From the IMG/VR virus record IMGVR_UViG_3300024308_000304: 23,363 bases of DNA. One strand, 5' to 3'. Position 1 is the first letter of the stretch. Each line of letters opens with the position of its first letter. The position numbers were made by a program, and so were the translations under genes. This DNA is from an uncultured virus (IMG/VR IMGVR_UViG_3300024308_000304). Lineage: Duplodnaviria; Heunggongvirae; Uroviricota; Caudoviricetes. The notes beneath the pieces were generated by a model that saw only the letters and a list, made by a program, of their open reading frames with translations, had not been told where the DNA came from and did not search any database. This document shows positions 1,333-23,363 of the stretch, in pieces.

Positions 1333-1333
1333 T

Positions 1334-2440: not shown

Positions 2441-2464
2441 ATGAATATCTCCAATTTGGGCAAT

Positions 2465-2493
2465 ATTATATTAAATATAGGCTTTAAAGTCAA
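2465..2493 (-). promoter_or_regulatory. sigma70-type promoter TTGACT-17-TATAAT
   Basis: -35 at 2488-2493 (contains the uvsE TGA stop), -10 at 2465-2470. Confidence 0.85.
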
Positions 2494-3503
2494 GATAAGT
2501 AATTGTTGTAATACTCAATGACAGCTAAGTTTTTTGATTTAACTTCAAACATAATATCAAAATTTTCTAAAAATTGTTTAGCATATAAATTTGACCAATC
2601 GTTCCACATATAATCACTGTGTGCATATAAATCTTTCTTATTTACTACTTTGAGTAATTCTGGAATTTTTAATTTATCTGTTTTATTGAATCCTAAATCT
2701 TGCAAGAATTCTTTTGATTGAGAATAATGCATTGTAGGTCTTACTCCACGCCAACTGTCTATTACTTTTTTAATGCGATCATCATTAATGTCAATATAAT
2801 CATTTTCATTAATCCAGCAATGATGTATATCCAAAACAACAGGGGCTAAATCAGCAGTTTCCAAAACAGAATTCAACCCATATTTTTTCTCTTCATTTTC
2901 AAACGTAATGATATTTTTAGCTGTTGTACTTAATTTGTTGAACATAGCTCTAATCCCTTCTGGGCCTGATGCACCTGAAATATGTACATTACACTTAAAA
3001 TCTTGAAAACTAACTCCATAGCCCATCATACGAGCCATATCAGCATGATATTCAAACTCTTCAATGCTCTTTTTAACAATATCATCAGAATGAGAAGCCA
3101 ATACACAAAATTGCCCCGGATGAAATGACAAACGAATATTATTAGTTCGAGCAAAGTGACCAATAATAGAAAATTTAGATTCCATCAAATCTTTAAATTC
3201 AGAGAGTGTATAAAGAAATTTCCATTTTGGATGGCTATATAAAGGCAATATATCACTACTGATACGATACATATGTAATGCAGAATCAAGCGTAGTAACA
3301 TAGCGAAGAGAGTTTTGTATTGAATTTAAATTATGTTCAACAACTTCATAAAGTCGTTCAGTTGCTACATCTAAATGAACACTACTCATCCACTTAGCTG
3401 TCACTGTTCTGGTATTGAATGTGCGTTCAATATTTTCTATTTCTTTTTTAGACAAACTTCTATCATTATGCATGTATTTACAAGCAAAACCTAATCTAAA
3501 CAT
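2490..3503 (-). CDS. uvsE: UV DNA damage repair endonuclease (UvsE/UVDE family)
   Basis: Motifs RLGFACK, YRISSDILP, RLSFHPGQFCVLAS, EFEYH, NVHISG, ENEE, LDIHH, HYSQS, AHSD, MFEVKSKNLA. Start moved to ATG 3503 (AAGAGGG RBS), 337 aa. Confidence 0.93.
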   Translation of the reverse strand: MFRLGFACKYMHNDRSLSKKEIENIERTFNTRTVTAKWMSSVHLDVATERLYEVVEHNLNSIQNSLRYVTTLDSALHMYRISSDILPLYSHPKWKFLYTLSEFKDLMESKFSIIGHFARTNNIRLSFHPGQFCVLASHSDDIVKKSIEEFEYHADMARMMGYGVSFQDFKCNVHISGASGPEGIRAMFNKLSTTAKNIITFENEEKKYGLNSVLETADLAPVVLDIHHCWINENDYIDINDDRIKKVIDSWRGVRPTMHYSQSKEFLQDLGFNKTDKLKIPELLKVVNKKDLYAHSDYMWNDWSNLYAKQFLENFDIMFEVKSKNLAVIEYYNNYLS

Positions 3504-3525
3504 ATAATGCCCTCTTGATGAAGAC

Positions 3526-3553
3526 ATTATATATTATAGATAGCGAATTTCAA
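3526..3553 (-). promoter_or_regulatory. sigma70-type promoter TTGAAA-16-TATAAT (uvsE)
   Basis: -35 at 3548-3553, -10 at 3526-3531, upstream of the RBS for ATG 3503. Confidence 0.55.
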
Positions 3554-3563
3554 ACAATACTCA

Positions 3564-4292
3564 TTAGCGATTATTCATTGCTTCTGAAAAGCTTTTATGA
3601 CTTGCCAATGTCAAAATAGAGAGCTTAATCTCTTTCAAGCATGGATAGGCACATTTATAATCATCACCTTTCTCTATAAACTTTGGCATTAGCTCATAGG
3701 TATAATTAGAAACACCACAATCTAAAGACTGTTCGATAAGCTGAACAATAAAGTCAATGTTTTGTTGTTCAAACGCCATATATTTTTCATCATCTTCATC
3801 AAGAGTTTTGAAGTTTTCAAGAAATTTTTTATGACGATGATCAATCATATCACAGTAAGCATTATATTCATCTAAATTACGCCAACTTGATGGTTTGGGC
3901 TTTGAATTGGATGACGGCAGAATACTCATAGTAATCTCTAGATTTGGTGTAAAACCAACATTATGTGTACAATAGATACCATTTTCATCAAAGATCTTAT
4001 CAAGTTTATTATAAATGCCTTGAATATAACCAGAAACCTTACTGAAATTCATATCTTCGCTTTCTTGAGATACTTCAAGCTCTCTAATACGAGAATTTAG
4101 CTTTCTGATAGTATCAACTTCATTGAAACGAACCCCTAAGTCAATTAAAGCTGATTTCATGCTGCTATGATTACTCTTCATCATATCAAGAGTTTGCTCA
4201 TCAAAGTTACGCCCACTTAGAAGAGACAAAAATAGAGAATTCATCTCAAGGTATTTCTTAATTGCATTTTCTTTAAACTCGTGTTCATTCAT
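3564..4292 (-). CDS. Hypothetical protein
   Basis: 242 aa ORF, AAGGA RBS, overlaps upstream gene end by 8 nt. Confidence 0.8.
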   Translation of the reverse strand: MNEHEFKENAIKKYLEMNSLFLSLLSGRNFDEQTLDMMKSNHSSMKSALIDLGVRFNEVDTIRKLNSRIRELEVSQESEDMNFSKVSGYIQGIYNKLDKIFDENGIYCTHNVGFTPNLEITMSILPSSNSKPKPSSWRNLDEYNAYCDMIDHRHKKFLENFKTLDEDDEKYMAFEQQNIDFIVQLIEQSLDCGVSNYTYELMPKFIEKGDDYKCAYPCLKEIKLSILTLASHKSFSEAMNNR

Positions 4293-5010: not shown

Positions 5011-5030
5011 AAAGCCTCTTGAGAGGCTTT
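5011..5030 (-). terminator. Intrinsic terminator
   Basis: AAAGCCTC-TTGA-GAGGCTTT hairpin directly after the stop of 5029..5424, followed on the minus strand by ATTTTT. Confidence 0.8.
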
Positions 5031-5424
5031 AAATTGAAATCATTTCACCAAGCATAATGTCATCATCAGAAATTACAACTTCTTCTGCAAAGTCTCGACC
5101 TTGAGCAATAATAACTTCTTCCACAATTAAAAGTAATTTAAGAAATCCTTTTTCAATAAAACGTTTGTTATGTTTATTCATAAGAACATAGAAACCTTCA
5201 TCTGCATCTTTAATACCTTTTTGCAAATCTTTACTTTTGAGTGATGATACAGAAACTCTATTTTGAAGATTCTTATGTTTGATTACAAACAGATAATCTG
5301 GATTTTTCTCAACAATTTTTTCTTTTACACGAATTACAAGTTGCTTATAAAATGTACGACGATTGATTTCCATTTGTTTCTTAGTTACTTTTTTTGGCTT
5401 TTTAGCTACAGTTTCTGAGGTCAT
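5029..5424 (-). CDS. Hypothetical basic protein with acidic/EMISI C-terminus
   Basis: Start moved to ATG 5424 (AAGGAG RBS); the track's TTG start is the promoter -35 box. 131 aa. Confidence 0.8.
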   Translation of the reverse strand: MTSETVAKKPKKVTKKQMEINRRTFYKQLVIRVKEKIVEKNPDYLFVIKHKNLQNRVSVSSLKSKDLQKGIKDADEGFYVLMNKHNKRFIEKGFLKLLLIVEEVIIAQGRDFAEEVVISDDDIMLGEMISI

Positions 5425-8550: not shown

Positions 8551-10578
8551 TTATATTTTTAATTTACTTTTATTTTCTTTCTTTAAATCAAATAAATCAT
8601 TAAATGAAATTTCTTTTTTATTAAGATAGCTATTTCTTCTAAATGCGACTTGTATATTAGTTACAATTGCATCTTTTGCTTTAAATTCATAAACACATAA
8701 TTTCATATTATTCTTTTTAAAGTTTTCAATTTCTTTCAAAGAGAACCAATTTTCAATTTGAGTTTTATTAGTGAATCCAAAGATATATTTTTCTTTATAA
8801 TTCCTTCTCATCAATCCTTTACCTTCTGTGTCAATAAATAGAGTTGATATTTCTCTATCGGCAGTAGGTTCTTTTCTTTGAGAGTAATTAAAAATTTGAT
8901 ATACATCTTCATCCATTAAAGTTTTTCCATCGATATCACTCTTGTAAGGTCCACGACCATCTTCCATCTCAAAACGATAAGCTTTAATGACATCATTATT
9001 CTTTGGAATGATAAACTCATTGTCAGTTAAATAATCATATAATGCATGATAACTAAATTCTTTAAGGTAATCATCACTCCCATATTTATGTGATATTTGC
9101 ATATTTAGTTTAACAGCATGATAAAGGTCTTCTTCTTTATCAGAATCTAAAACACCAAATTGCTCTTCAACAAAACTTTTAACTTTTTCAAATAAATCAT
9201 TTATTTCATAGTCATCTTGATATGCTGGTGGAACAGAAAATGCCAAATTGGTATGATGAAAACCATATTGTAAGAAGTAGTCTAATGAATTATTACCTTC
9301 ATCTTTCAAATAACAGTGCTGAATAAAATCTTTTCTTGTCTCAAAAAACTGTTGTTTATCCTTGATGATATCCTTATAAGTTATCATTAATTCTTCTTTA
9401 AAGGCTTTGACTAATAACGCAGGTTTATCAGAATCAAATAGTTCTTCTTGCTGAATCATAGGGTTCTTTAAAATAACTTTTTTGTAAAAAGAATTAAATA
9501 TTTTATCAGAATATTCATAAAGTTTATTCTGAGCAACAAAACCATAAAGATCATAAAACATATCTTTTTCAACTTTAGTGTAATATATTCTTTTATCTTT
9601 ATTGTCTTTACGTAATGAATCCATTAAATTATATTTTTGAACACAATCATGAAGTAAAAAGAAGTCTTTTTGTAAATTCCCATTTTCTATAATACTATTG
9701 ATTACTGCTAAATAGTTATTTTTATTACGAATAGAAGCTTTTAAAGAAATGTCACGAACTTCACTTGCAAGATCATGCATGATTACAGAGCCACCAGAAT
9801 ACTTGTTATCATGTTTCACATAAATCCATGAAACATCATTATGTCCTATATCTGTATTTGCCGTCATATAAGAAGGACTAATATATTTAAAGCTAAGCTC
9901 ATTTGCTATAAACGACGTTTTTTTATAAAACTCTTTTTCTTTACCATTAAATTCTGGATAAGGGTTTATTATCGTATCTTTGATTTTATCATAATGATCT
10001 GAAAAATTAACATCATGCATAATTTCTATTTGTTGTTCTTGACCTAACTTTTCATGAAGTAAACTTTTAAGTGATTTAGAAGCTACATTATATTGATATG
10101 ATTTGGCATAATCAGATAAGAAAAAATCAGCTTTTAGTTGATTGTCAGAATCAGTTAAAAAAGAGTCTACAATATGACAGGAATCAAAATATTTTCTACG
10201 TCTAGTAAATTTACTTTCATTTGGGTCATAAATTAGTTCACCCACTTTTTCTGCTAACAGATTAAGTGGTTCAAAAAGCTCCAGACCATACTTTTCTTCA
10301 AGCTCTTGAACGCCATCACTATCAATATAAAGGTTATCTAAAATATTATCATCAGGATTGTATTTCATTACATAATGATCAACATCTTTTAATTTAGCCA
10401 GAGAATAATTACCTTCAGTATACTCTTTAAAAAAACCACTGTTCAAAAAATCAACTGTAATTCTTTGTGCTGAGTTATAATCTTCTGTAGTAAGTATACC
10501 TGTCTGTTTGTATTTAAATGAAAGTAAATCTAAAAATAAAAAATCATGCTGACTTTTAAACATATTAAGTATGGACAT
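8551..10578 (-). CDS. Large hypothetical protein; possible degenerate GNAT-like middle domain, C-terminal YRxE-GxGPY domain, Lys-rich tail
   Basis: 675 aa ORF; C-terminal YRFEMEDGRGPY...FGFTNKTQIENWF...YEF...QVAF; ends KKENKSKLKI. Domain calls are inference. Confidence 0.8.
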   Translation of the reverse strand: MSILNMFKSQHDFLFLDLLSFKYKQTGILTTEDYNSAQRITVDFLNSGFFKEYTEGNYSLAKLKDVDHYVMKYNPDDNILDNLYIDSDGVQELEEKYGLELFEPLNLLAEKVGELIYDPNESKFTRRRKYFDSCHIVDSFLTDSDNQLKADFFLSDYAKSYQYNVASKSLKSLLHEKLGQEQQIEIMHDVNFSDHYDKIKDTIINPYPEFNGKEKEFYKKTSFIANELSFKYISPSYMTANTDIGHNDVSWIYVKHDNKYSGGSVIMHDLASEVRDISLKASIRNKNNYLAVINSIIENGNLQKDFFLLHDCVQKYNLMDSLRKDNKDKRIYYTKVEKDMFYDLYGFVAQNKLYEYSDKIFNSFYKKVILKNPMIQQEELFDSDKPALLVKAFKEELMITYKDIIKDKQQFFETRKDFIQHCYLKDEGNNSLDYFLQYGFHHTNLAFSVPPAYQDDYEINDLFEKVKSFVEEQFGVLDSDKEEDLYHAVKLNMQISHKYGSDDYLKEFSYHALYDYLTDNEFIIPKNNDVIKAYRFEMEDGRGPYKSDIDGKTLMDEDVYQIFNYSQRKEPTADREISTLFIDTEGKGLMRRNYKEKYIFGFTNKTQIENWFSLKEIENFKKNNMKLCVYEFKAKDAIVTNIQVAFRRNSYLNKKEISFNDLFDLKKENKSKLKI

Positions 10579-11295: not shown

Positions 11296-11547
11296 TTATG
11301 GCTTCATAGATTTATAAGATATTTGTGATGCATCTATATCCAATTTTTTCATATTTTCTGTTGCATTAGTAAACTCAGAAACAGCATTCTTATCAATTCT
11401 TACACTGTTAATAATTTCTCCTTGTAGAGCATTCATTGCTTTTAGACTTCTTTCTTGATATTGTGCAAAGACTGATAAATCAACATCAGACAAACTATCA
11501 GTCACTTCAATAGTAGGAAGTGTATTATTACCATACTGTGCTTTCAT
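11296..11547 (-). CDS. Small hypothetical protein with KSMKP tail
   Basis: 83 aa ORF with AGGT RBS, TGC-TATAAT upstream (-10 at 11580-11585) and its own terminator. Confidence 0.75.
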   Translation of the reverse strand: MKAQYGNNTLPTIEVTDSLSDVDLSVFAQYQERSLKAMNALQGEIINSVRIDKNAVSEFTNATENMKKLDIDASQISYKSMKP

Positions 11548-11674: not shown

Positions 11675-12871
11675 ATGTCACCATTAGTAAAATTTGAAGA
11701 AGATATTATTCGAGCTTATCAATTAGTTAATGGAAACTTTAATTCCATTAACGATAGTTTGTTCTACCAGTTAAATAAAGAATTAACACCTTTCCTTAAA
11801 GATTTACTTAACTCTTATTATTTTGAAGACGATTTTAAAGCTGAAATTAAAATTAAAAATGATGACTATGTTATAAATTATCATGAAATAGAAAACTGTA
11901 AACCATTTTTAGACCTTGATTACCTTAAATATGATGACAAACCAAATGTTGATTACCATATTGAAGTAGATGAAGAAAAATTAATAGAAGCTTTGAAGAA
12001 AATAGATCCAATCTACGAATTAATTTATGAAGATTCACCTGTTAAACAAAAATTAAACTTAGTGAATAAAAAAGAATTAGAATTTAAAACTATTTATGTA
12101 AATCATGAGAATATAAGAGAAGTATTTGCTGAACTACACAGTATCGGTTTATATGAAAAGAATTGGAATAAACATCAATCATATCAAGTGATAAGGAATT
12201 TGCAAGAAAATTTATCCGAATTAAACAAATTAGATTTCATCAATTTGGAATTTAATGTTAATAGAACATTCATAATAGCTCACAATAAACATCAGATAGC
12301 TGGAGTTTCATGTATCGCTAATTATAGTATGTTTGATACAATGGATGACAAAAAATATTTTGCAAGAAAAAATATGGCCTATTCAAGTTATGTAGCTGTT
12401 GCATCTCAATTTAGAGGCAATGGATTAGCAGTCGAACTAATGAAAAAAACTTTTGATTATGCAAAAGAAAATAATAAAATAATGATTCGTTCAAAATCAA
12501 CCTTTGATGGCAAATCATTTTTAGAAGAAAATGTTGATAAATTAATGTTGAAGATAAAAGATACAGCTATTGTAAATTCAAGAGACGAACATTGGTTGAA
12601 TGGATTTTCAAATTTAATAAGGTCAATAAAATCAGATGAAGAATATAATCTTTTCTATGAAAAATTAAAACCTGTTTTATTGAACATATCTACATTATCA
12701 ATAGAAAATGAAAAACAATGTGAAATGTTAGGAAGTGATTATGAACAAAGATCAAAAATAACAGAAGATTGTAGCAAAGTTATAGAGAGTATAATAAAAA
12801 ACTTCCATGAAGAATTTGAAATGGATAAATTGTCTATGAAATCAGTCAAAAATAAAATAAAAGTTAAATAG
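11675..12871 (+). CDS. GNAT-family N-acetyltransferase with long N-terminal extension and Lys-rich tail
   Basis: Acetyl-CoA motif A YVAVASQFRGNGLAVELMKKTFDYAK, preceded by FIIAHNKHQIAGV strands; 398 aa; ends KSVKNKIKVK. Confidence 0.8.
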   Translation: MSPLVKFEEDIIRAYQLVNGNFNSINDSLFYQLNKELTPFLKDLLNSYYFEDDFKAEIKIKNDDYVINYHEIENCKPFLDLDYLKYDDKPNVDYHIEVDEEKLIEALKKIDPIYELIYEDSPVKQKLNLVNKKELEFKTIYVNHENIREVFAELHSIGLYEKNWNKHQSYQVIRNLQENLSELNKLDFINLEFNVNRTFIIAHNKHQIAGVSCIANYSMFDTMDDKKYFARKNMAYSSYVAVASQFRGNGLAVELMKKTFDYAKENNKIMIRSKSTFDGKSFLEENVDKLMLKIKDTAIVNSRDEHWLNGFSNLIRSIKSDEEYNLFYEKLKPVLLNISTLSIENEKQCEMLGSDYEQRSKITEDCSKVIESIIKNFHEEFEMDKLSMKSVKNKIKVK

Positions 12872-13361: not shown

Positions 13362-13862
13362 TCAAATTTTATACATAGAGATCATTTCATATAAACTATC
13401 ATCCATTTCATCAATACTAAAAGATTTACCATACATATCTTTTAATAATGGCAGAATAAAATGAAACTTCATAAACTTATCAACATGATTAACTATATCT
13501 TCTAATTTATCACTTTTACAAGAGAAAAAAGAATATGGAACCTCACATGTTTCAGTTTTAATCCAACCAAGTTCTAAATATCCCTTCAGTCTGGAATATC
13601 TAAAGGTGAAATTTTTTACTGAATGAGTGTTTAATTTAATAGAAACCTTCATAGATTCATAAGCTCGACTACCAGTAGGACAACTATCTACTATAGATAT
13701 ACTTGCTGCAATATCATTAAATCTATTGGTGGTTTTCATAGAAAAACTATCAAATGTGAAGGTATCTGAAATATCTTTACCTTGATAAAGATATAAATAT
13801 TTCAAAATAACCTTAACTATTCTATAATAATCTTGATAAGGATCTTTATTACATATATCCAT
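13362..13862 (-). CDS. Hypothetical protein, shared C-terminal module family
   Basis: Start moved to ATG 13862 (GGAG RBS), 166 aa; ends KDMYGKSFSIDEMDDSLYEMISMYKI. Confidence 0.8.
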   Translation of the reverse strand: MDICNKDPYQDYYRIVKVILKYLYLYQGKDISDTFTFDSFSMKTTNRFNDIAASISIVDSCPTGSRAYESMKVSIKLNTHSVKNFTFRYSRLKGYLELGWIKTETCEVPYSFFSCKSDKLEDIVNHVDKFMKFHFILPLLKDMYGKSFSIDEMDDSLYEMISMYKI

Positions 13863-13884
13863 GATAGACTCCAATTGATAGACT

Positions 13885-13913
13885 ATTATACCATAATATT
13901 AAAAATTATTCAA
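13885..13913 (-). promoter_or_regulatory. Promoter TTGAAT-17-TATAAT (extended -10)
   Basis: -35 at 13908-13913 overlapping the last codons of 13906..14697; TGG-TATAAT with -10 at 13885-13890. Confidence 0.75.
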
Positions 13914-14697
13914 ACTTAAACATTTGCATAACTTCAAATGTTTCATCATTCACATCTTCAAAATTAAACGAACCATATAGGTCCAGCATAGGCTTATAAT
14001 AGTAACTTGATTTAAAAATAATATCTTTCAAAAATTCATGAATATCCTCTTCTGTCTCAAGATATACACATGCACCCTTTGTTCTTTTATCATTTACTCT
14101 TACATAATAATTATAATCTTTATCATTAGGGATAACATATAATTTAAGAACATGTTTGCTACGAGTAGGTAAACGAATTGAAAATCCCAATTTCAATTCT
14201 TTTTTATTGGTTACAAATAATTGAATTCCATTATCCAAAGACATAGAATAAGTATTATTTTTCTTCCAATTGAAATCATTTTGTACTCTATAATAATTAG
14301 AAGATAAATAATCCATAAGATCATTAAATGTTATAAAATGTGGTACACTATCTAAATTAAGCTTCAATTTAGCCATGTTAATGAAATAAGTATTAATAAT
14401 TCTAAATAAAAATTTCAAATCTGGTAATATAAAAGGTCTTTTTCTAAAGTATTCAAATTTTTCTCTGTAGATATTAAAACAATCTTTTTCTGAGTCAAAA
14501 GACTTTATCAATGTTCCATGCTTATCATAAATATCAAAATGTTCAATATCAGAAAAATTACCCAAATAACCAAGAGTAGAATTATATCGCTGGTCGTTGC
14601 TTTTTAAATATTTTAATTTATTAGCCTGAATATTCCAGTCATGAAACCCTTCAATATCTTTAATTTTAAATGATTTTAAACTATCACCCTTTAACAT
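13906..14697 (-). CDS. Hypothetical protein, shared C-terminal module family
   Basis: 263 aa, GAGGA RBS; ends LDLYGSFNFEDVNDETFEVMQMFKFE. Confidence 0.8.
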   Translation of the reverse strand: MLKGDSLKSFKIKDIEGFHDWNIQANKLKYLKSNDQRYNSTLGYLGNFSDIEHFDIYDKHGTLIKSFDSEKDCFNIYREKFEYFRKRPFILPDLKFLFRIINTYFINMAKLKLNLDSVPHFITFNDLMDYLSSNYYRVQNDFNWKKNNTYSMSLDNGIQLFVTNKKELKLGFSIRLPTRSKHVLKLYVIPNDKDYNYYVRVNDKRTKGACVYLETEEDIHEFLKDIIFKSSYYYKPMLDLYGSFNFEDVNDETFEVMQMFKFE

Positions 14698-14754
14698 AAA
14701 TTATCCTCAATTTAACATAAGGATATCAATAAAAATAAAAATCTCAATAGTGTA

Positions 14755-14783
14755 TTGTCTGTTTATTTCTAATATGCTAATAT
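14755..14783 (+). promoter_or_regulatory. Promoter TTGTCT-17-TAATAT (extended -10)
   Basis: -35 at 14755-14760, TGC-TAATAT with -10 at 14778-14783. Confidence 0.6.
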
Positions 14784-14806
14784 AAAAGAAAATAATGAGG
14801 CTCATT

Positions 14807-15184
14807 ATGGATTTTTTTGACAAAGAACTATTTGAAAAAGATCTACGCTCAATAGCTTTATGGCTAAATGTTGAGAGTATAGAGCATATAGACATAACAT
14901 TGTCTAAAATGAGCCTATCCAATTTTGCAAATCAAATTACAGAAATGGAAAAATCCTACCCAGAATTCCCCAAAGAAAAAGAAAGAACTCAACGTATCTA
15001 TAATAAATTGAAAAAAGGCGAAGCTCCACTTCCAATCTTTATACAGAATGGTGATGAAAACAATTTCATTATGGAAGGTCGTCATAGAATTGTTGCGTTC
15101 AAATGGCTTGGTCTTGAAGAAGTCATTGTTGCTAAAGTTCAAGAAAAAACATTAGAACTAAAAGTTAAATTAAAACCTTTTTAA
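14807..15184 (+). CDS. Stand-alone ParB/Sulfiredoxin-like domain protein with Lys-rich tail
   Basis: PLPIFI...IMEGRHRIVAFKWLG matches the ParB/Srx GxHR motif; no HTH. Start moved to ATG 14807 (GAGG RBS), 125 aa; ends LKVKLKPF. Confidence 0.75.
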   Translation: MDFFDKELFEKDLRSIALWLNVESIEHIDITLSKMSLSNFANQITEMEKSYPEFPKEKERTQRIYNKLKKGEAPLPIFIQNGDENNFIMEGRHRIVAFKWLGLEEVIVAKVQEKTLELKVKLKPF

Positions 15185-15213
15185 TTGAATTAATTTGAAT
15201 TAAATGTTATAAT
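15185..15213 (+). promoter_or_regulatory. Promoter TTGAAT-17-TATAAT (extended -10)
   Basis: -35 at 15185-15190, TGT-TATAAT with -10 at 15208-15213; TTGAATTAA is directly repeated at 15185 and 15195. Confidence 0.75.
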
Positions 15214-15236
15214 CACTAAAATTTATGAGGCTGATT

Positions 15237-15917
15237 ATGGAAGAATGTTTTAATATCCCCTTGGACATGAATAATGAAAATGCTATTCTTTTTATTGTCA
15301 CAATGTGTAGATATATTGGGCTTAGAGTCAAAGATGCAGATATTGAATTAATGCCAAAAAATGACGATTTTTTATATTACAAAATTAATGGTATAAATAG
15401 TGGAAATGTACACATTAGTCATATTGAAAAACATAAATCATTAGTATGGAATATAAACATTTATGATGCAAATGGTCAAAATGACTTTTTCAAACGTATT
15501 ACTTGCTCTTATTATGCTACTGTTATTAGTGATGTAAGAGAGATCCATGAATCATGGGTTTTGAGTCCTAAGAAAAATGGAACTAGGAAACAAATTATTT
15601 TCTCAAAAATTAATGATAAAGTTGTGAAAGCAGAAGCCAAAACATTATCATATTACACCACTAACGCAAATAAAAATGTTGGTGCCATTATTGTTACACC
15701 CAGTGAAGATGAAGATATTGACCTTATTAAAACAAGCCCTGAAAAGCTTACTAATCTTAAATATATCTCAAATTTATTAAAGTTAAGCTATTATTCTTAT
15801 ACTGCTACTAATGTATATAAAGAAATTTTTGGAAGCATAGAAGTTTTGAATACATTAAATAAATATGAAAAAGAAATAGATAACTACTTATTAATATTTG
15901 AAAGCTACGAAATATAA
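15237..15917 (+). CDS. Hypothetical protein, shared C-terminal module family
   Basis: Start moved to ATG 15237 (GAGG RBS), 226 aa; ends KEIFGSIEVLNTLNKYEKEIDNYLLIFESYEI. Confidence 0.8.
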   Translation: MEECFNIPLDMNNENAILFIVTMCRYIGLRVKDADIELMPKNDDFLYYKINGINSGNVHISHIEKHKSLVWNINIYDANGQNDFFKRITCSYYATVISDVREIHESWVLSPKKNGTRKQIIFSKINDKVVKAEAKTLSYYTTNANKNVGAIIVTPSEDEDIDLIKTSPEKLTNLKYISNLLKLSYYSYTATNVYKEIFGSIEVLNTLNKYEKEIDNYLLIFESYEI

Positions 15918-15930
15918 GGAACCATAAATT

Positions 15931-16563
15931 ATGGCTATTATTCTTAAAAAATTAAACCATATTAAAATGGCTCAAGATAAATTAATGAAATTAATATCTA
16001 TTGCTCAAGAAAAAATTGAAACATCAGAAAATGGTGAAATTAGTGTTCACAATCAAAATAATTCAAATTATTTGTTAAGACAGAATTCTAAAGATTATGC
16101 AACAATAACTGTCATAAAATCGGGTAATAAAATAATAGGATACATGATTAAACATGATAGTTATGGAACATCAAAAATAGCATGCCCTCATCAGTATACA
16201 ATTAATGTTGATCATAACTTTAAAATAACGTCTGAAAGCTGGCATACACTGATATTTGGACCTTTTACTGAGTTTTCTTTTTCATTAAGTATTAATTACA
16301 GATTATCAAAGAATGAACTTCACTTTTCAGTAGATCAATACAATGATGAAAAAATAGATAAAATAAAAAATAACTATTTTTCAACTGATAGATTAGACTT
16401 ATTATTGTTAAAGGATTTTCAAAAAAAGATATTTTTAAGTTATGTCTCATTTAAAAATCCAAAGTTGGTTGAAGAGGTTTTTAACACTGATGATTTTGAA
16501 AAAGCATTAAAACATGAATTATTTGATGAAAACATAGATGTATTAAGAATGTATCAATTTTAA
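15931..16563 (+). CDS. Hypothetical protein, shared C-terminal module family
   Basis: 210 aa, AAGGA RBS; ends EEVFNTDDFEKALKHELFDENIDVLRMYQF. Confidence 0.8.
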   Translation: MAIILKKLNHIKMAQDKLMKLISIAQEKIETSENGEISVHNQNNSNYLLRQNSKDYATITVIKSGNKIIGYMIKHDSYGTSKIACPHQYTINVDHNFKITSESWHTLIFGPFTEFSFSLSINYRLSKNELHFSVDQYNDEKIDKIKNNYFSTDRLDLLLLKDFQKKIFLSYVSFKNPKLVEEVFNTDDFEKALKHELFDENIDVLRMYQF

Positions 16564-16641
16564 AAATTAAAATTTGCATTCTATTTTTAGTATTTATTAC
16601 TATTCATGGTATAATAATAAAAAATATACTGAAAGAAAGAT

Positions 16642-18141
16642 ATGTCAAATATAAATAAAATTAAAGAATTGCATAATAACTTTAAAGAAAATATAGAAAC
16701 ATCAGAAACATTTGAGCACACTAAAGGACTATTACAAGATTTTGGTAATTACTTAAACAAGCACAAACAAATGTTTTATGTGCTACTTGGTGCTACAGCC
16801 ATGAACATAGCAGCACAAGCTGCTGAACCAATTATTAAACAATACCAAGCATCAGAATTTTCTCAAATATACAAAAGCGATGCATCTGAATTAACTTTGG
16901 AAGATTCATTAATGAATTTTAAAAAAGAAGTTGATATGGGAAATAATGTCACAAATAGTGCTTTTGCTCAACATCAGAATGCTCAAATAATGAATGAAGA
17001 TCTTGTAAAAGATATCATGAATATGAAAGTTGGTGAAACGATATTTGTAAAAAACCCATTCTGGACTAATAGTGTTATTGAATTAAAAATAGATAATGAA
17101 GTTGAAAGTATGATGTATGCCTCAAATTATGAAGCCCATAAGCATCAAATTAATGAATTCAATTCTTCTATGATAGTTGACTATACAAATCCAGTAATAA
17201 AGTTCAATCCTGATAACATGAAAGAATATTTGGACAACTTTGCTAATGCACAAACTGAACAACAAAAAGTTGATTATACGAAGTTTGTTTTATATCATGA
17301 AGCCGCACATGCAACCAGAAGGCAATCTGAACATTTGGATGCCAAAGCATATGAAAACATCACTGTACTAAAGAAAGAAATACAATCAGATGTTTCAGCT
17401 ATGATGCTATTAGGACACGAATCTAGAGATTTAAAAAATTTCAATGAAAACATTGATATGATTATAAAAACTAGATTAACTGTTTTAGAATATGATTCAG
17501 ATCATAATACAACGTATGCAATGATAGAATTAAAGAACGCAGTTAATAACAATCCAGAATTGCTGAATATGAAGCCATCAAACATTACTGAATTTGCATA
17601 CTTATTCAGTGAGAAGATTTCTCAAGCTAATTTCAATAATGAACCAGTTGTTAAAGACTTGTTAAGTTCTATTCCAAAAGATAAGGAGTCCTTATTGAAT
17701 GAAGCCAAGGAAGGTAAAAATATGGAATATATGAATTATTATGCTGGTAAAATATATAATAAAGGTATATATGCATTTAATTTAAAACGATTCTTGCAAC
17801 CGGGCTTTGAACATAGAACAGATAAAATATTTGAGAACATTGAATCTACAATAAACAAAGACATACGACATGATGATTTTGTAGCTTTTACATTTATAAA
17901 AAACAAAAAAGAATTTGATTCAACACCAATGACTGCTGATCAATTTTTAACTAAAATGCAAAATGATTTAACTAAAAAAGCAGAGAATGATCCAGTAATT
18001 ACAAAAGATATGGTATCAATGTTAAAAGCAAAGATAAAAATGGATGAAATGGATTATAACGTTGCAGATATACAAAACTTAGTAAATCAAGTCAATAGCC
18101 ATAAAAAGATATCAAAAAATAACATAAAATTTGAAATATAA
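16642..18141 (+). CDS. Putative zinc metallopeptidase-like (HExxH) protein with N-terminal hydrophobic segment and Lys-rich tail
   Basis: FVLYHEAAH (HEAAH at 17296-17310) followed by KKEIQSDVSA (candidate third-ligand ExxxD); hydrophobic MFYVLLGATAMNIAAQA; 499 aa; ends KKISKNNIKFEI. Confidence 0.65.
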   Translation: MSNINKIKELHNNFKENIETSETFEHTKGLLQDFGNYLNKHKQMFYVLLGATAMNIAAQAAEPIIKQYQASEFSQIYKSDASELTLEDSLMNFKKEVDMGNNVTNSAFAQHQNAQIMNEDLVKDIMNMKVGETIFVKNPFWTNSVIELKIDNEVESMMYASNYEAHKHQINEFNSSMIVDYTNPVIKFNPDNMKEYLDNFANAQTEQQKVDYTKFVLYHEAAHATRRQSEHLDAKAYENITVLKKEIQSDVSAMMLLGHESRDLKNFNENIDMIIKTRLTVLEYDSDHNTTYAMIELKNAVNNNPELLNMKPSNITEFAYLFSEKISQANFNNEPVVKDLLSSIPKDKESLLNEAKEGKNMEYMNYYAGKIYNKGIYAFNLKRFLQPGFEHRTDKIFENIESTINKDIRHDDFVAFTFIKNKKEFDSTPMTADQFLTKMQNDLTKKAENDPVITKDMVSMLKAKIKMDEMDYNVADIQNLVNQVNSHKKISKNNIKFEI

Positions 18142-18145
18142 AAAT

Positions 18146-18167
18146 AAAAGACCTCGAAAGGTCTTTT
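18146..18167. terminator. Bidirectional intrinsic terminator
   Basis: AAAAGACCT-CGAA-AGGTCTTTT (UUCG loop on the minus strand) between convergent stops. Confidence 0.88.
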
Positions 18168-18607
18168 TAATTTTGTAATTGTTGCACATATGTAAGAATA
18201 CCATTTTTAATAACTAAATCTTCAAATATATAATTATCTCTTGATCCTTTTCTAACATAAGGTTTATTATTAGTGTAATAATCATCCATAGAATGAAACA
18301 CATATTCAATAAAATCGTATCCGTCACTGTCAAAAAATGTAATTCTAATATTTGATTCATTATAGCTATAATGTTTAAATAAACTTGATGATTTTAATAC
18401 TTCATCTTTAAAATCTTCAAAGATTTTATCCAATATATTCGAATCTTTTGTTTTTATTGTCATTTTTAATTTAGCTAAAAAAAGAAATCTTTCAATATTA
18501 ATCTCTTTTTCAAGACCAGTAATAATAGTATCTAATTTTTCAATTGAACCATTCCAACCATCTATTGATAATTGATCTTTTAATTTTTCAATATATTTCT
18601 TATCCAT
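18167..18607 (-). CDS. Hypothetical protein
   Basis: 146 aa ORF, GAGGA RBS. Confidence 0.78.
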   Translation of the reverse strand: MDKKYIEKLKDQLSIDGWNGSIEKLDTIITGLEKEINIERFLFLAKLKMTIKTKDSNILDKIFEDFKDEVLKSSSLFKHYSYNESNIRITFFDSDGYDFIEYVFHSMDDYYTNNKPYVRKGSRDNYIFEDLVIKNGILTYVQQLQN

Positions 18608-18629
18608 ATTATTTTCCTCAAATAATTAT

Positions 18630-18657
18630 AGAATAGTGTAAAGAAACACTAAGTCAA
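18630..18657 (-). promoter_or_regulatory. Promoter TTGACT-16-TATTCT with palindromic spacer
   Basis: -35 at 18652-18657, -10 at 18630-18635; TAGTGT-N6-ACACTA at 18634-18651. Confidence 0.6.
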
Positions 18658-18671
18658 TTAGTATTTCTTTA

Positions 18672-20102
18672 TTATGCTTTAAAAGTTAAAATAGGACTAA
18701 ATTTTGCAATTACAGAAACTGTTTTTTCATCAACTTGTGACTGAATAACTGGTCCTATTTCTTTATAAGCTGCTGGTGCTTCTTCAATCATACGTTCTTC
18801 TTTCAAAGTAATACATTCTACTTTATCAAGCCCCAGTATGCTTTTGTCTTTACGAGCTTTAAAAGAAATCTCATTACGTGAGATACTTCTACCAGCACCA
18901 TGACTTGCAGAACTTAACCAGCTTTCATTACCAAGGCCACTTAATAAGTAGCTATCATGTCCCATACTACCCGGAATTAACAAGTCTTGTCCTGCATAAG
19001 CTGGTGTTGCACCTTTTCTATGTACATTACCAATTGCTTCTTTCAAAACAATATTGTGTGGAACATCTACAACTAATGGACAATCTAAATCCCCAAATAC
19101 TTCTTTAGTACGTTGACGAACTAATTCAGCAATCAATGCTCTATTCAATGTAGCATAATGTGCAGCACTGTGCATCGCCATCAAATATTCATCAGCTAAT
19201 TCGCCTAATACTGGAAATATTTTACTGTCTGGATGTTTATGCCCTACTGGCCATTGTTGTTTTGCTTTATCCGCCCATCTTGAGCCAACATAGAAACCAA
19301 CATCACGAGAACCAGTATGAATCATTACAACTAACTGCCCAACTTTAAGACCATATTCATAAGCTTTTTGTCTGTCAGTGATTTCAGTAATCACCTGAAG
19401 TTCACAAAAATGATTACCACCACCAAGAGTTCCCATTGAAGGATCTCTTAATAAATCTCGACTCATATTCTGTAATGCTTCTGGTGCATAATTAGAATTA
19501 CCTTTTTCAAACGCTGATGTGTGCAGTCTGGATAATTCATTTTCAATTTGAAGATAATCTATTTTATCGAAAATACCTTCTTTTTTAGACTTATTCATCA
19601 CTTCAAAAAAATCGCCAACACCATTATCAAACAATGCTTTCATTGCATGAGGTGTAACTGGAATATTTCTTGTACCTTCTAATAAATCACCTTTAAGTTT
19701 CTTTACCCATACATCTTTATTAGCCATGAACTTATCATAGGTTAAGTCTAGTTTATGCAATCGCATTCCACAGTTTATATCAGTGCCAATAGCTTGTGGA
19801 ATAACCATGTCATGGGATGTTACAACAACACTACCTACTGGAATGGTGCTGCCAGTATGGAAATCTGGAGTTGCACATGAGCATTTAACATGCCCGCCAT
19901 CAGGATGTTGTATTCTTGCAAAATCCATTAGCTGATGAATTGCTTTTTCTTCAATAGCAAAGTTTTCAGGCAATAGTATTTTACTTTCGAGATTAGCATC
20001 ATTAACTGATTTAATACTCAAAACATTATTATTTTCTCTATCAATATTCAAACCACTTTTCAGTAGTTTTTGTTGAATTCTTTTAAATGGTATTTTTTTC
20101 AT
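18672..20102 (-). CDS. rtcB: RtcB family 3'-phosphate/5'-hydroxyl RNA ligase
   Basis: Motifs PDFHTG, IGTDINCGMRL, GTLGGGNHFCE, HTGSR, HRKGATP, PGSMG, SASHGAGR (guanylylated His), EEAPAAYK; 476 aa. Confidence 0.95.
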   Translation of the reverse strand: MKKIPFKRIQQKLLKSGLNIDRENNNVLSIKSVNDANLESKILLPENFAIEEKAIHQLMDFARIQHPDGGHVKCSCATPDFHTGSTIPVGSVVVTSHDMVIPQAIGTDINCGMRLHKLDLTYDKFMANKDVWVKKLKGDLLEGTRNIPVTPHAMKALFDNGVGDFFEVMNKSKKEGIFDKIDYLQIENELSRLHTSAFEKGNSNYAPEALQNMSRDLLRDPSMGTLGGGNHFCELQVITEITDRQKAYEYGLKVGQLVVMIHTGSRDVGFYVGSRWADKAKQQWPVGHKHPDSKIFPVLGELADEYLMAMHSAAHYATLNRALIAELVRQRTKEVFGDLDCPLVVDVPHNIVLKEAIGNVHRKGATPAYAGQDLLIPGSMGHDSYLLSGLGNESWLSSASHGAGRSISRNEISFKARKDKSILGLDKVECITLKEERMIEEAPAAYKEIGPVIQSQVDEKTVSVIAKFSPILTFKA

Positions 20103-20203
20103 GATTCTGGCCTACTTTTATTTAGATAAATTTGTTGCTCGGAAGAAATCCGATAATTTTATCTTTCCGAATCAGCAGCCAGCCATAAGGAAGGAATGAA
20201 CAT

Positions 20204-20232
20204 ATAATAACATCTGCCGGAGCAGATGTCAA
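20204..20232 (-). promoter_or_regulatory. rtcB promoter TTGACA-17-TATTAT with perfect 8-bp inverted repeat in the spacer
   Basis: -35 at 20227-20232, -10 at 20204-20209; ACATCTGC-N4-GCAGATGT at 20210-20229. Confidence 0.8.
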
Positions 20233-20239
20233 TTAGTAT

Positions 20240-22291
20240 TTAATGTAAAGTAGTTGAATGAGAAATATAGCCATCGTCTAAATAATCGATAATATAAACA
20301 TCATTAGATTCATTAAATTGTGATGCATCCATTAATAAATCCTCCATAAATTTATAAATTTTTCTTACATTAAGAATTTTTTCATGAGCAAATGCATTAG
20401 CAATAGATTTTAAACCAATTTCATTGATTTCAACTAAATCAAAGATCGAATCTTTTTTCAATTGTGAATAAATACTTTTAATAATAGCTGGTAATTCTTC
20501 TTCTCTAGGAGATTTAATAGTAAAAACTCTAAATCTATTTATTATACCTTTATCAATGTTCTCTAATGAATTTGCAGTAGCAATATAGTTGACATAACTA
20601 AAATCAAAAGACACAGAGAAAAAGTTTTCATAAAAGTCTTCAGCACTTCGTTGTTCTAATAAATCATATAATGGAGCCATTATTCTTCCATTAGCATTTC
20701 CTGTCACTACTTTATCCATTTCCTCCAAAACAATAATAGGATTATAGCATTTGTTTCTTATCACTGTTTTAGAAACAAAACCCGGCTGACCAGTGTTCCA
20801 AAGAGAAGTTGAACCAGCAATTTCTGATGGTGTGGTCATATTCCCAATATTAACTGCATTCATATAAATATTAAAAATATTATTTATCTCATCTATGAAA
20901 GCACTTTTACCTATTCCATTTTTCCCAAGTATTAAAATAGGTTTAAAGTTTAATACTCCATTCTTTCTAATATTCATTTTTAAACAAATTTCTAAATAAT
21001 CAATTATTTCATAAAAATGAGGATAATTTATTTTAAGTTCCTTTACCTTATCTAATAGAGAGCAGTCAACAGTTAATGGTTTAAGATAACTAAGTATATG
21101 CAAATATGATTCATTTCTATAAGTTGCTTGTTCTGATGGATAACGATTATTATTTAAAATTTTCTTATAATTTCTATGAATTTCTTTATTTTTAAAAAAA
21201 CTATTAATATATTTCTCAACTTCCTTGTCATTGTATATATCACTAAGAGCCTCTTTTAAATAGTATTTTTCTTCCAATAAAATATGTTCTTCATAAGGTA
21301 ACGGATACAAACATTGTTGTTTAATAGACCTTAAATTGGGTGTTGATACTTGCGTTAAATTTTTTGAAACTGTTTTTTCACTTATAATATCATTTACTAT
21401 TTCATTCAAATAATTGTCATCACTCAATTGTCCATCTATTGAACCATCTTCAAAAAGGAATTCAGCAGTATTAAAAATAGATTTTTTAAATTCTTCTAAT
21501 ATACTAATGAATGCCAATAAATCTGCTGCAATTACAGGTTCAAAAGATTGTATGAAAGAAAGTTTGTTAATGTCTAATAAAGTAATTTCTTCAATAATAT
21601 AATTATTTAAAGACACTTCATCAGTCTTTTTACTAATAAAATTTAAATAATAACGTTCTATGTCATAAAGAAAATTAGACAAATCTTTGAAGTTGAAATG
21701 ATTGTCAATAAAGAAATCTTTATTAATGTTTGCAATATTATCACGCAATGATAGCTTGTCAGAAAAGAGCACTACTTCTTCAAGAAATTTTATATAACTT
21801 TTAACAACAATAGAAGCCATATTATTTTGTTCATTAGGTAACATACTTAGACAATAATAAGAAATAAGATGTGTACTGTCAGATTCATTATTTTGTTCAA
21901 TATATTTTGACATATGAGGCGATTTAAGGAGTTGAAAATAAACAGATAATATTTCATTGTATGAGTTAAAATCTTGTCTATTAATAATGTTTCTGACTTT
22001 TGGAATAATTAATTTGTTTTCGTATAGAGATCCTATTAAATAAAAAATATTGACTAATTTTTCAATATATGAATCTTTATCAATATCAGAGAACCCAAAA
22101 TATGTGAAAGTGTGATTATTTAAATCGCCTAATTCTAAAGCTAAATCTGTTGGTATAGGAATAGGGAAACTAAAAGATCTTTTATTATTTTGGATATCTT
22201 TAATTTCAATAAGTCTAAAAACACCAGTATCATTTGAGTTTTCTAAAATAAGTCTTAATGGACATATATTAATATTGGATTCTGTTTCCAT
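20240..22291 (-). CDS. Lon-type AAA+ ATPase lacking the protease domain, long unique N-terminus
   Basis: Walker A GKNGIGKS, Walker B IVLEEMDK, Lon-like NPIIVL, LYDLLE..F.ENF, YIATAN (sensor I), NRF (Arg finger); protein ends shortly after the AAA module; 683 aa. Confidence 0.82.
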   Translation of the reverse strand: METESNINICPLRLILENSNDTGVFRLIEIKDIQNNKRSFSFPIPIPTDLALELGDLNNHTFTYFGFSDIDKDSYIEKLVNIFYLIGSLYENKLIIPKVRNIINRQDFNSYNEILSVYFQLLKSPHMSKYIEQNNESDSTHLISYYCLSMLPNEQNNMASIVVKSYIKFLEEVVLFSDKLSLRDNIANINKDFFIDNHFNFKDLSNFLYDIERYYLNFISKKTDEVSLNNYIIEEITLLDINKLSFIQSFEPVIAADLLAFISILEEFKKSIFNTAEFLFEDGSIDGQLSDDNYLNEIVNDIISEKTVSKNLTQVSTPNLRSIKQQCLYPLPYEEHILLEEKYYLKEALSDIYNDKEVEKYINSFFKNKEIHRNYKKILNNNRYPSEQATYRNESYLHILSYLKPLTVDCSLLDKVKELKINYPHFYEIIDYLEICLKMNIRKNGVLNFKPILILGKNGIGKSAFIDEINNIFNIYMNAVNIGNMTTPSEIAGSTSLWNTGQPGFVSKTVIRNKCYNPIIVLEEMDKVVTGNANGRIMAPLYDLLEQRSAEDFYENFFSVSFDFSYVNYIATANSLENIDKGIINRFRVFTIKSPREEELPAIIKSIYSQLKKDSIFDLVEINEIGLKSIANAFAHEKILNVRKIYKFMEDLLMDASQFNESNDVYIIDYLDDGYISHSTTLH

Positions 22292-22315
22292 GAAGCTCTC
22301 CTTAATTATCTATCA

Positions 22316-22343
22316 AGAATACTATTTAAAAGAAAATAGTCAA
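22316..22343 (-). promoter_or_regulatory. Promoter TTGACT-16-TATTCT
   Basis: -35 at 22338-22343, -10 at 22316-22321, AAGGAG RBS at 22298-22303; same boxes and spacing as 18630-18657. Confidence 0.65.
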
Positions 22344-22365
22344 TAAATAATCAAGAAGGAAACAT

Positions 22366-22710
22366 TCAAGAATAGTGAGTAAATATAAATAATTGTGGTT
22401 TTATTTCATCTACTGATAAACTGAATTTTTCGCTTAATTCTTTAACAAGAGCTTTGTCTTCAAAAAGAGACTTATCAATAGCAGTCATTGATATGCCTTC
22501 GAATTCATTTGTCTTTTTTATAAGCCTACCAATGATTGCATATTTATTTGACATTCCATCAAAAACAACAACTATATCACCATTTCTATTTTTTCTATGA
22601 CAATAATCACTGTGTACATCATAATTCTCTTCAATGTTATACTTTTCTTGATAATCTTTTCCATTTAAGCTTACACCATATATGATATAATGTGTTTCTT
22701 TAACTGACAT
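22366..22710 (-). CDS. Hypothetical protein (phage-like, DGM motif)
   Basis: 114 aa, AGGAG RBS; YIIYGV...VFDGMSNKYAIIG. Confidence 0.8.
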   Translation of the reverse strand: MSVKETHYIIYGVSLNGKDYQEKYNIEENYDVHSDYCHRKNRNGDIVVVFDGMSNKYAIIGRLIKKTNEFEGISMTAIDKSLFEDKALVKELSEKFSLSVDEIKPQLFIFTHYS

Positions 22711-22724
22711 ATCTATCTCCTATT

Positions 22725-23363
22725 TTAAATATTCAACATTGGTAAGACTTTCGAGTCTTGAATTCTTAATTCATCAATCATTATGTTAAGCTTTTTAGCT
22801 CCATAAATTTCCAAAAATCTTAATTTAAATGATTGCCAATGCTCTGTCAATATTCTTTTTTCACCTGCAGCTGTATAATTATAATACTGTGGTCTTTTAA
22901 CTATCTGTCCATTATCATGTTCAATATAAATATGGTATTTAACTTTAAAATAATTTAAATCCGAAAGTTCAGTTTGATAGTTCAAATCTGTTATATGATC
23001 ATTAAAATTAACATTTTGCATTTTCATTAGCTCAGAAAAACAAAATGAATTTTGAGATGTACCACCTAAGCAAAAGGCTTTAAGGAATTTAAGATCTTCC
23101 ATTATACTAATAAAATCTTCTTTTATATCTACAATAACTTTAGTTTTGAATATGAATGATAATTGATTTAAAGACATCAGATCTTTAGGAATTAAATTTG
23201 AACGTGTTAAATTAGCTGATCCATTTAAAATATAATAAGTTAAAACTTGATTTTTATGAATTATTTTAATATCAATATTTCCACTACCATTAATACTTTG
23301 ATTAATGTGTTCAATATGATAACGATTATCAATTAAACTACGAACGAGTTCTTTATCTATCAT
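22725..23363 (-). CDS. Hypothetical protein, shared C-terminal module family (start at window edge)
   Basis: 212 aa open to the last base (ATG at 23361-23363; true start may lie beyond); ends LEIYGAKKLNIMIDELRIQDSKVLPMLNI. Confidence 0.75.
   Translation of the reverse strand: MIDKELVRSLIDNRYHIEHINQSINGSGNIDIKIIHKNQVLTYYILNGSANLTRSNLIPKDLMSLNQLSFIFKTKVIVDIKEDFISIMEDLKFLKAFCLGGTSQNSFCFSELMKMQNVNFNDHITDLNYQTELSDLNYFKVKYHIYIEHDNGQIVKRPQYYNYTAAGEKRILTEHWQSFKLRFLEIYGAKKLNIMIDELRIQDSKVLPMLNI

Follow-up and report, generated by a model that had tools for sequence, protein, structure and literature searches.

The window analysed here is the whole 23,363-nucleotide stretch of IMG/VR record IMGVR_UViG_3300024308_000304, deposited as an uncultured virus. 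Six of its 27 open reading frames (ORFs) encode orphan proteins (ORFans) that end in a common short C-terminal segment. We call this segment the Met tail after a Met at position -4, the last residue being -1. As the initial annotation had stated, all six C-termini are present, the genes lie on both strands and their tail codons differ. The six ORFs, referred to below by their first coordinate, are:

5029-5424, minus strand: 131-residue basic ORFan with the Met tail (tail codons about 5029-5070)
13362-13862, minus strand: 166-residue ORFan, modelled as a helix, a five-stranded beta-meander, a long helix and the Met tail (about 13362-13403)
13906-14697, minus strand: 263-residue ORFan with the Met tail and one extra residue (about 13906-13950); an orthologue 26-28% identical keeps the Met
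15237-15917, plus strand: 226-residue ORFan with a variant tail in which Ser replaces Met (about 15876-15917)
15931-16563, plus strand: 210-residue ORFan with the Met tail (about 16522-16563)
22725-23363, minus strand: 212-residue ORFan with the Met tail (about 22725-22766)

Comparison of the RtcB gene of the window pointed to a related 181-kb IMG/VR record, G001 (RtcB identity 87%). Gene order is common to the window and G001; 20 of the 27 window ORFs match there (E ≤ 0.01 in the homologous region; hand count), and five of the six tail genes are among them. The 5029 protein had been annotated as a weaker member of the family. It is instead a full one, ranking third of the 27 window ORFs in the profile scan described below, and its orthologue, a syntenic 124-residue tail protein of G001 that is 41% identical, keeps the tail. 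The orthologue of 15931 (24-26% identical) keeps it as well. Two orthologues of 15237 have Ala at -4, and 15237 is a variant member without the Met. The 13362 gene probably starts at 13862, giving 166 residues as in two close homologues. The start codon of 22725 lies at the window edge and the gene may be longer; the last ≈ 40 residues of its protein align with three tail proteins from related elements. The six ORFs were joined by none of the 20 largest of 48 direct-repeat families, in line with the earlier claim that conservation is at the protein level and not that of a DNA repeat.

We then asked how often the tail occurs in G001, using ORFs of at least 60 residues with an ATG start and with shadow frames removed (n = 204). 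Met was found at -4 in 46 ORFs against 5.6 expected, and at -5 to -3 in 54 against 12.5 ± 2.7 (maximum 19) at internal offsets. Met(-4) occurred in 26 of 1437 ORFs from 89 unrelated control loci, where 29 were expected. Only nine of these loci are below 36% GC, most being richer in GC than G001; the nine gave 3 of 136. For ORFs of at least 100 residues, the combination of Met(-4) and a hydrophobic last residue was present in 41 of 182 in G001, in 7 of 1437 in the control loci and in none of the 136 from the nine loci below 36% GC. A profile of the six window tails placed 39 of 195 G001 C-termini above the 99th percentile of internal controls; these 195 lie outside the main syntenic block but still include the 5029 orthologue. 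The reverse profile (13 columns, 36 G001 tails, excluding 8 that are orthologous to window proteins or look like them) ranked the six named ORFs 1-6 of 27 (chance 3.4 × 10−6), with 15931 first and 15237 second. At the same threshold, shuffling the window proteome 2000 times produced on average 0.25 hits and never more than 3. None of 56,712 internal 13-mers scored as high as the lowest training tail. The C-terminal enrichment, on which the initial annotation had staked the family, thus holds against shuffled AT-rich proteomes, and the scan of the relative returned, as predicted, many matches restricted to C-termini and carried by sequence-unrelated bodies.

A working set of 47 G001 members was chosen by rule and by eye. 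In 43 aligned tails, the conserved core is formed by the last ≈ 11 residues, phi-x-phi-phi-[E/D]-M-phi-x-I-COOH (phi, hydrophobic). An acid is found at -11 in 49% and at -5 in 56% of the tails, and a hydrophobic residue at -9 in 81%, at -7 in 93%, at -6 in 98% and at -3 in 74%. Met at -4 and Ile, Phe or Val at -1 complete the core, these two columns being partly fixed by how the set was selected. The last residue is Ile in 29 of the 47 members, Phe in seven and Val in four. The [YF][GN] pair that had been included in the original consensus is not general (9 of 47 tails versus 10.8 in control windows); the Gly at this place is invariant within the 13362 family.

The register of the Met was also examined in relatives of two families. 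The single full-library search was made with a family of six tandem genes instead of a 40-column tail profile, which scores at most 29 bits. It gave 36 matches in 1.84 billion representatives, of which 8 short or spurious ones were left out. Met(-4) was present in 27 of the 28 full-length relatives (15-87% identical, found with a profile that extended over the tail) and in all 14 relatives of the 13362 family. Across 16 aligned sequences of the latter, 19-95% identical to the 13362 protein, both Met(-4) and Ile(-1) are invariant. Leu, Ile or Phe seldom replace Met(-4), and we infer that this Met behaves unlike a plain buried core position.

In the 181 kb of G001 that was sampled, roughly one protein in four carries the tail. 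These carriers are 124-492 residues long (median 252) and are clustered in tandem (25 adjacent pairs versus 11.9 expected; 0 of 5000 permutations). After removal of the last 35 residues, 53 tail proteins, a set that contained two rows later dropped and lacked two later added, formed 32 sequence-unlinked groups. With the last 15 residues removed, 16 family profiles gave no cross-family match at E < 1 × 10−3, and the profile-profile probability was below 2% in five of five between-family comparisons. Pfam families (E ≤ 1 × 10−4) were assigned to none of the 47 carriers versus 50 of 142 other G001 ORFs (hand count), and a PHROG match was found in one carrier. By a crude rule, a signal-peptide-like start was present in 0 of 47 carriers and 18 of 135 others (p = 0.004; 1 of 48 if a dropped row is included). 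Searches of Pfam, PHROGs, NCBIfam and the ESM Atlas, and of PDB/BFVD by fold, yielded no informative match, an absence that does not show a new fold. Two proteins tried against the PLSDB plasmids found no relative there.

Five carriers are multi-pass membrane proteins in which the tail follows the last predicted membrane segment. A basic stretch after this segment in three of the five suggests that the tail is on the cytoplasmic side. The longest carrier (492 residues, L023:13353-14831) is a fusion consisting, in order, of an N-terminal region with a GNAT-like motif (seen by eye), the phage domain phrog_21276, a body and the Met tail. Over residues 105-256 it is up to 56% identical to phage proteins; the phrog_21276 domain is 54-56% identical in phages XacN1 and Stenotrophomonas CM1. 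The body of the fusion is weakly similar to another tail family (E = 0.0024), and a PDB search by sequence gave no informative match to the protein. Conversely, a paralogue of the six-gene family (L019:3968-4681; G001 79968-80681) has no tail: it matches profile positions 1-236 of 269 (E = 1 × 10−13), lacks the last ≈ 33 residues and with them the Met knob, and ends in a Lys-rich stretch. It represents possibly a switch between two tail classes, or a truncation. Because of this paralogue and the fusion, we conclude that the tail can be lost and that a body together with its tail can be joined to other domains. The idea of a constant C-terminal unit on sequence-unrelated bodies therefore stands in so far as the unit is C-terminal, detachable and present on membrane and phage-domain proteins; the unrelatedness of the bodies is less secure, since they may share a layout.

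Structures were modelled for two families. The model of the six-gene family (34 sequences; predicted local distance difference test score, pLDDT, 89.9; predicted template-modelling score, pTM, 0.87) has two alpha/beta units, the second consisting of helix 93-109, four strands and a long helix 202-235. It ends in three short helices (239-243, 247-251 and 254-260), the last of which bears the motif. The 13362 model (16 sequences; pLDDT 66.5, pTM 0.66) contains helix 8-26, five strands, helix 120-144 and a terminal helix 155-164. Foldseek gave no match at E ≤ 0.001 for the models. Weak template matches of both were to FP domains (4ouh_A, 4l9c_A), Med17C and capping protein (Z 4.4-6.6). Residues 15-150 of 4ouh_A, an FP domain, align to both models (Z 5.8, root-mean-square deviation (rmsd) 4.6, 108 residues aligned; Z 4.4, rmsd 5.5, 101 aligned). 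The 13362 body is weakly similar to the immunity proteins TriTu and Rv3902c (Z 5.6, rmsd 4.1 and 3.5). Z scores this low may reflect a common arrangement only.

The reading that we favour, tentatively, is that the Met tail is a docking tag read by one common cytoplasmic partner. A near-invariant Met and a terminal Ile stand at fixed register whether the body is soluble or membrane-bound, and exported proteins and known enzymes lack them; from this we infer a single cytoplasmic pocket. One protein architecture would then have been expanded, on an AT-rich megaplasmid-like element of 1.5-1.9 Mb, to probably several hundred genes. Each protein would consist of a fast-changing body, a long helix and a small helical knob ending phi-x-phi-phi-[E/D]-M-phi-x-I with a free carboxylate. 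The beta-meander between the helices, seen in the two modelled cases, would be the kind of surface used in protein-protein binding. The partner, perhaps an unfoldase, would accommodate the Met and the C-terminal Ile in a pocket and so read every member, and the bodies would bring different targets to it as an adaptor or sensor repertoire. Body identity between the window and G001 falls to ≈ 25% while RtcB retains 87% and UvsE 62%, a drift that would be compatible with variable binding surfaces.

As the common partner, the initial annotation had suggested a neighbouring gene of the window:

20240-22291, minus strand: Lon-type AAA ATPase without a protease domain (TIGR00763 matches residues 429-653 only)

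In this protein, an orphan region of ≈ 400 residues precedes the AAA module, which has Glu-Glu at the Walker B position. It is an unlikely partner and probably not part of the system, on two results. Residues 1-420 found only two homologues (99% and 51%), neither listed on a long contig, in a word-based search that scored 7998 candidates and may miss distant homologues; and G001, with its 47 tails, had no match within its 181 kb. Protease-less ATPases related to this protein occur on several plasmids (25-33% over the AAA part).

A Clp ATPase is present on the same replicon as the tails, as shown for the G001 element. Its ClpA (G001 121545-123821; TIGR02639, E = 4 × 10−235, below the curated cut-off) is diverged, being 39-43% identical to cellular ClpA of several gammaproteobacteria, and contains a Gly-Ile-Gly-Phe loop, a kind of loop with a role in ClpP docking. 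The ClpA of a G001-type element is the best named partner candidate, although taken on its own it is an improbable one. ClpS and MecA are known Clp adaptors. The tail proteins would resemble such adaptors in docking on a Clp ATPase by means of a short helix or small domain; mobile elements can supply adaptors, and G001 encodes a ClpA of its own. They differ in number and form: the known adaptors are single and without a common C-terminal motif, and the TssC helix is N-terminal. Clp-family N-domains are described as taking single helices, the TssC/VipB helix binding a groove of the ClpV N-domain (PMC5048182), and Gp53 of phage SPO1 is reported to be an adaptor on ClpC (PMC6873191). Known Clp adaptor families gave no match to the window members (Pfam, PHROGs, NCBIfam) or to the G001 members (Pfam, PHROGs). 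In its boldest form, which we regard as doubtful, the docking reading describes a bacterial F-box-like repertoire: hundreds of fast-evolving soluble and membrane binders would plug by a Met-Ile helix into a single machine of the element, such as its ClpAP, and the plasmid would thereby recognise and remove or redirect proteins of the host, of phages or of rival plasmids.

Several observations weigh against a docking tag. The 47-member set was selected by the motif itself; it leaves out three borderline rows lacking the Met, of which one has a signal peptide and another a Pfam NIF phosphatase domain, and it includes two rows that were added. When the Met column was removed from the reverse profile, 13362 fell to rank 9 and one non-member rose to rank 4. 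Between the window and G001, identity over the last 12 positions of five orthologue pairs (25-50%) hardly exceeds that of the bodies (26-41%), and within the 13362 family tail and body entropy are equal, few positions being fixed. Other hypothetical genes of the window drift as fast as the carriers (26-59%). The partner is at the stage of a candidate, and may lie in the ≈ 90% of the replicon outside the sampled part. The tail is confidently folded in the monomer model of the six-gene family (pLDDT 87-95 for residues 231-260), and much of its hydrophobic pattern may reflect self-packing. The two modelled families, 2 of the 32 groups, are unrelated in sequence and share the order helix, beta-meander, long helix. 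Finally, 50 tail proteins are richer in strand-formers at -100 to -60 than 133 others (p = 7.5 × 10−5 and 4.4 × 10−3; eight zones and three measures were examined). The shared unit may thus be a domain of 100-140 residues, many carriers may belong to one hyper-diverged superfamily, and a shared body layout could explain the shared end by common descent alone.

These last points lead to the strongest rival, which we consider unlikely: all members descend from one domain and the tail helix is kept for folding or for homo- or heterodimer formation, with no outside reader. The common order of elements over the same FP-domain template range (4ouh_A 15-150), the beta-rich zone, the tandem clustering and the well-folded tail are all consistent with such a remnant. 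It has to accommodate profile-profile probabilities below 2% between families and the lack of cross-family matches at E < 1 × 10−3 once the last 15 residues are removed, and Z scores below 8 may reflect a common arrangement only. Moreover, packing alone would not keep the motif at a constant distance from the C-terminus across 32 groups, and the 131-residue 5029 protein and the membrane proteins have little space for a full body. The possibility, raised at the outset, that the proteins are full-length homologs of one known fold is therefore answered in two parts: one hyper-diverged superfamily may exist, but the carriers are not ordinary paralogues of a known family.

Somewhat less probable again is an export signal, that is, a C-terminal signal of the hydrophobic type read by the coupling protein of a conjugative type IV secretion system (T4SS), by which the carriers would be injected into recipients or neighbours. 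T4SS signals are usually loose, and the folded knob differs from them in this respect. Known T4SS signals (basic in VirB/D4, the E-block of Dot/Icm, XVIPCD of Xanthomonas) are described as C-terminal and of a basic or hydrophobic type (PMC10025392). The Met tail is likewise C-terminal with a hydrophobic end, is found on many unrelated proteins and occurs on a replicon of conjugative type, and the two tail classes of the element (the second, basic class is described below) would fit the two signal types. Vir/Dot/Icm machinery is reported on the pMEGA megaplasmids of Enterobacteriaceae (Guitor et al., bioRxiv 10.1101/2025.09.30.679422; PMC12633466). G001 encodes a PilS-type pilin, and the carriers lack signal peptides. 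Against this, the Met tail is not basic (Lys plus Arg account for 8% of the last 10 residues versus 21% in other ORFs) and has a near-fixed Met(-4), and the carriers contain no recognisable toxins or enzymes except for the one fusion. An E-block, for which the letters EExxE are used in the Dot/Icm system, is also absent: an EExxE-like pattern was found in 1 of 47 tails versus 2 of 135 others, and Glu at -20 to -8 was 9.7% versus 8.5%, with Asp plus Glu raised (21% versus 14%). XVIPCD, a domain of ≈ 120 residues with a Gln-rich tail behind a toxin, had no Pfam match in the six window and 47 G001 members, whose tails are not Gln-rich. ART-PolyVal, HipA-like, GNAT and ParB-like proteins, which are kinds reported to be delivered with DNA (PMC5512222), end in a basic stretch without the Met tail. 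The sequence covered, 181 kb of G001 and the 23 kb of the window, showed no T4SS gene.

It is very improbable that the tail is a degron marking the carriers, for instance short-lived immunity or antidote proteins, for fast turnover by ClpAP, Lon, FtsH or Tsp. The hydrophobic free C-terminus, the element-encoded ClpA and the weak likeness of the 13362 body to TriTu and Rv3902c would fit such a role. However, C-terminal degrons are usually unstructured whereas the tail is modelled as packed helices, and the regulators and enzymes of the element lack it. A cause at the level of DNA or translation, in which the Met would initiate a four-codon minigene or belong to a repeated DNA signal, has a negligible chance of being correct: Met having a single codon, this one position cannot distinguish selection on DNA from selection on protein, but a Shine-Dalgarno-like sequence precedes none of 43 tail ATGs (versus 63 of 1125 internal Met codons, 5.6%) and the codons at -1, -6, -7 and -9 and the stop codon vary freely, so that the minigene is largely refuted. 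A promoter common to the tail genes was also considered and rejected. The hexamer TGAAAT is enriched upstream of them (14 of 47 versus 7 of 135), but it consists of the Glu-Met codons in the tail of the preceding gene in at least 8 of the 14 cases (read by eye), and sigma-70-type patterns were not enriched upstream of tail genes.

The docking tag was initially likened to the poxvirus ANK/F-box (PRANC) proteins, which are described as substrate adaptors for protein destruction encoded as many paralogues in a mobile genome, with a variable binding part and a constant C-terminus (PMC4353913, PMC9414399). The likeness holds as an analogy of variable part and constant end. It does not extend to the domains, since there was no ankyrin or F-box Pfam match and the models are beta-meanders, nor to the setting, bacteria being without ubiquitin ligases. 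The C-terminal clamp-binding peptides of phage T4 gp43, gp55 and gp33 offer another parallel, being carried by unrelated proteins that share a hydrophobic end and one hub; they have a different motif and are few, against dozens to hundreds of proteins here. C-terminal tags common to several proteins have precedents, as does the expansion of families on giant replicons. As far as tested, what is new is the motif itself, the scale on which it occurs and its confinement to ORFans that are not exported; the motif was not found in the literature searched, whose coverage mostly left out subscription papers.

Giant AT-rich plasmids consist mostly of hypothetical genes, and one tail places about a quarter of the sampled genes in a single class. 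The density of 26 tails per 100 kb corresponds to ≈ 400-480 per element if it holds beyond the 181 kb from which it is extrapolated. Should the tails prove to form an adaptor repertoire for one machine, this would be categorically new for bacteria. With an unfoldase as reader, the system would amount to modular protein targeting on a large scale in bacteria, possibly usable as a programmable degradation tag; with a coupling protein as reader, it would be a new signal for conjugative export that serves an exceptionally large set of cargoes. A purely structural role, too, would define a very large unannotated protein superfamily.

The elements that carry the tails are probably not phages. G001 is a piece of a metagenome contig of 1,859,102 bases: 20,375 bases of the IMG/VR "provirus" (L026/G001, 181 kb) are 100% identical to a locus on this contig. 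Capsid, terminase and tail genes had no Pfam match in the 181 kb, and phage structural genes were found neither among the 27 ORFs of the window, searched against Pfam and PHROGs, nor among 190 of G001, searched against Pfam (≈ 10% of the replicon). A jumbo-phage origin was rejected, the "provirus" being a slice of the 1.86-Mb contig and no phage record coming close. Orthologues are present on contigs of 1,859,102, 1,858,324, 1,851,360, 1,843,594 and 1,539,155 bases, so the replicon of the relatives exceeds 1 Mb. Orthologues of tail proteins were found on those of 1.84-1.86 Mb, and the 1,539,155-base contig carries a member of the 90% cluster nearest to the 13906 protein. A third relative (L027) has the same gene block as the window. 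At least five contigs of 1.54-1.86 Mb with orthologues would point to an undescribed clade of giant AT-rich elements, with Pseudomonadales possibly as hosts.

The GC content of G001 is 29-34%. Its genes include those for tRNA synthetases, GAPDH, TrxB, ClpA, PilS pilin, OmpA proteins, RNA repair and ADP-ribosyltransferases, and it has 25 tRNA calls in two blocks. Blocks of Leu tRNAs and of Ala, Arg and Met tRNAs lie at L019:1614-3500 and L023:4104-6247; each block has one call with an irregular anticodon loop. The replicon resembles the pMEGA megaplasmids, and the comparison goes no further than likeness: both are of megabase size with ≈ 26-31% GC and tRNA blocks arranged by amino acid, and both have pilins, genes for translation and Clp proteins, a majority of hypothetical genes and large multicopy families, pMEGA4 being reported to have more than 300 alpha-solenoid genes, ≈ 20% of this plasmid (PMC12633466). 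The main text of that report contains no use of "terminal" or "terminus" and describes no tail motif; its supplement has 43 "c-termin" rows that may bear on novelty. The elements differ in that the expanded family is here based on a beta-meander where modelled. They may also differ in affiliation: window positions 172-4170 had no blastn match in complete Escherichia coli genomes, and the window RtcB is 69-70% identical to (chromosomal) Pseudomonas copies.

A second C-terminal class was observed, with Lys-rich tails ending Lys-hydrophobic-Lys-Ile/Pro. Its genes in the window and examples in G001 are:

8551-10578, minus strand: window gene with basic tail
11296-11547, minus strand: window gene with basic tail
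11675-12871, plus strand: window gene with basic tail
14795-15184, plus strand: window gene with basic tail
16642-18141, plus strand: window gene with basic tail
18135-19943, 21560-23623, 74214-75401 and 177565-178833: G001 examples

A strict rule for this class selected 11 of 182 G001 ORFs versus 1.0 in controls, and two of the five window genes listed. A Shine-Dalgarno site is rare in basic-tail genes (2 of 11 versus 113 of 171; p = 0.002). By eye, the class includes GNAT, ParB-like, HExxH, ART-PolyVal and HipA-like proteins, and the basic tail is a candidate signal for conjugative co-transfer.

The window itself is densely coding in genetic code 11, with 24-36% GC per kb. Apart from the Lon-type AAA module without a protease domain, its named genes (Pfam, PHROGs, NCBIfam) encode UvsE, a pyridoxal-phosphate enzyme resembling D-cysteine desulfhydrase, a GNAT protein, a ParB-like protein and RtcB. 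The RtcB gene (18672-20102, minus strand; GC 36%) is richer in GC and far better conserved than its neighbours, suggesting that it was gained from a host more recently than they were. At the other end of the window, 172-1332 and 1334-2440 (both minus strand) are tandem paralogues without a family match and with a single G001 orthologue (30-34%). Both proteins begin with a similar Met-Gly-Thr stretch that includes a conserved Thr-Arg-Trp-Asp-Gly and would resemble the start of an N-terminal nucleophile hydrolase.

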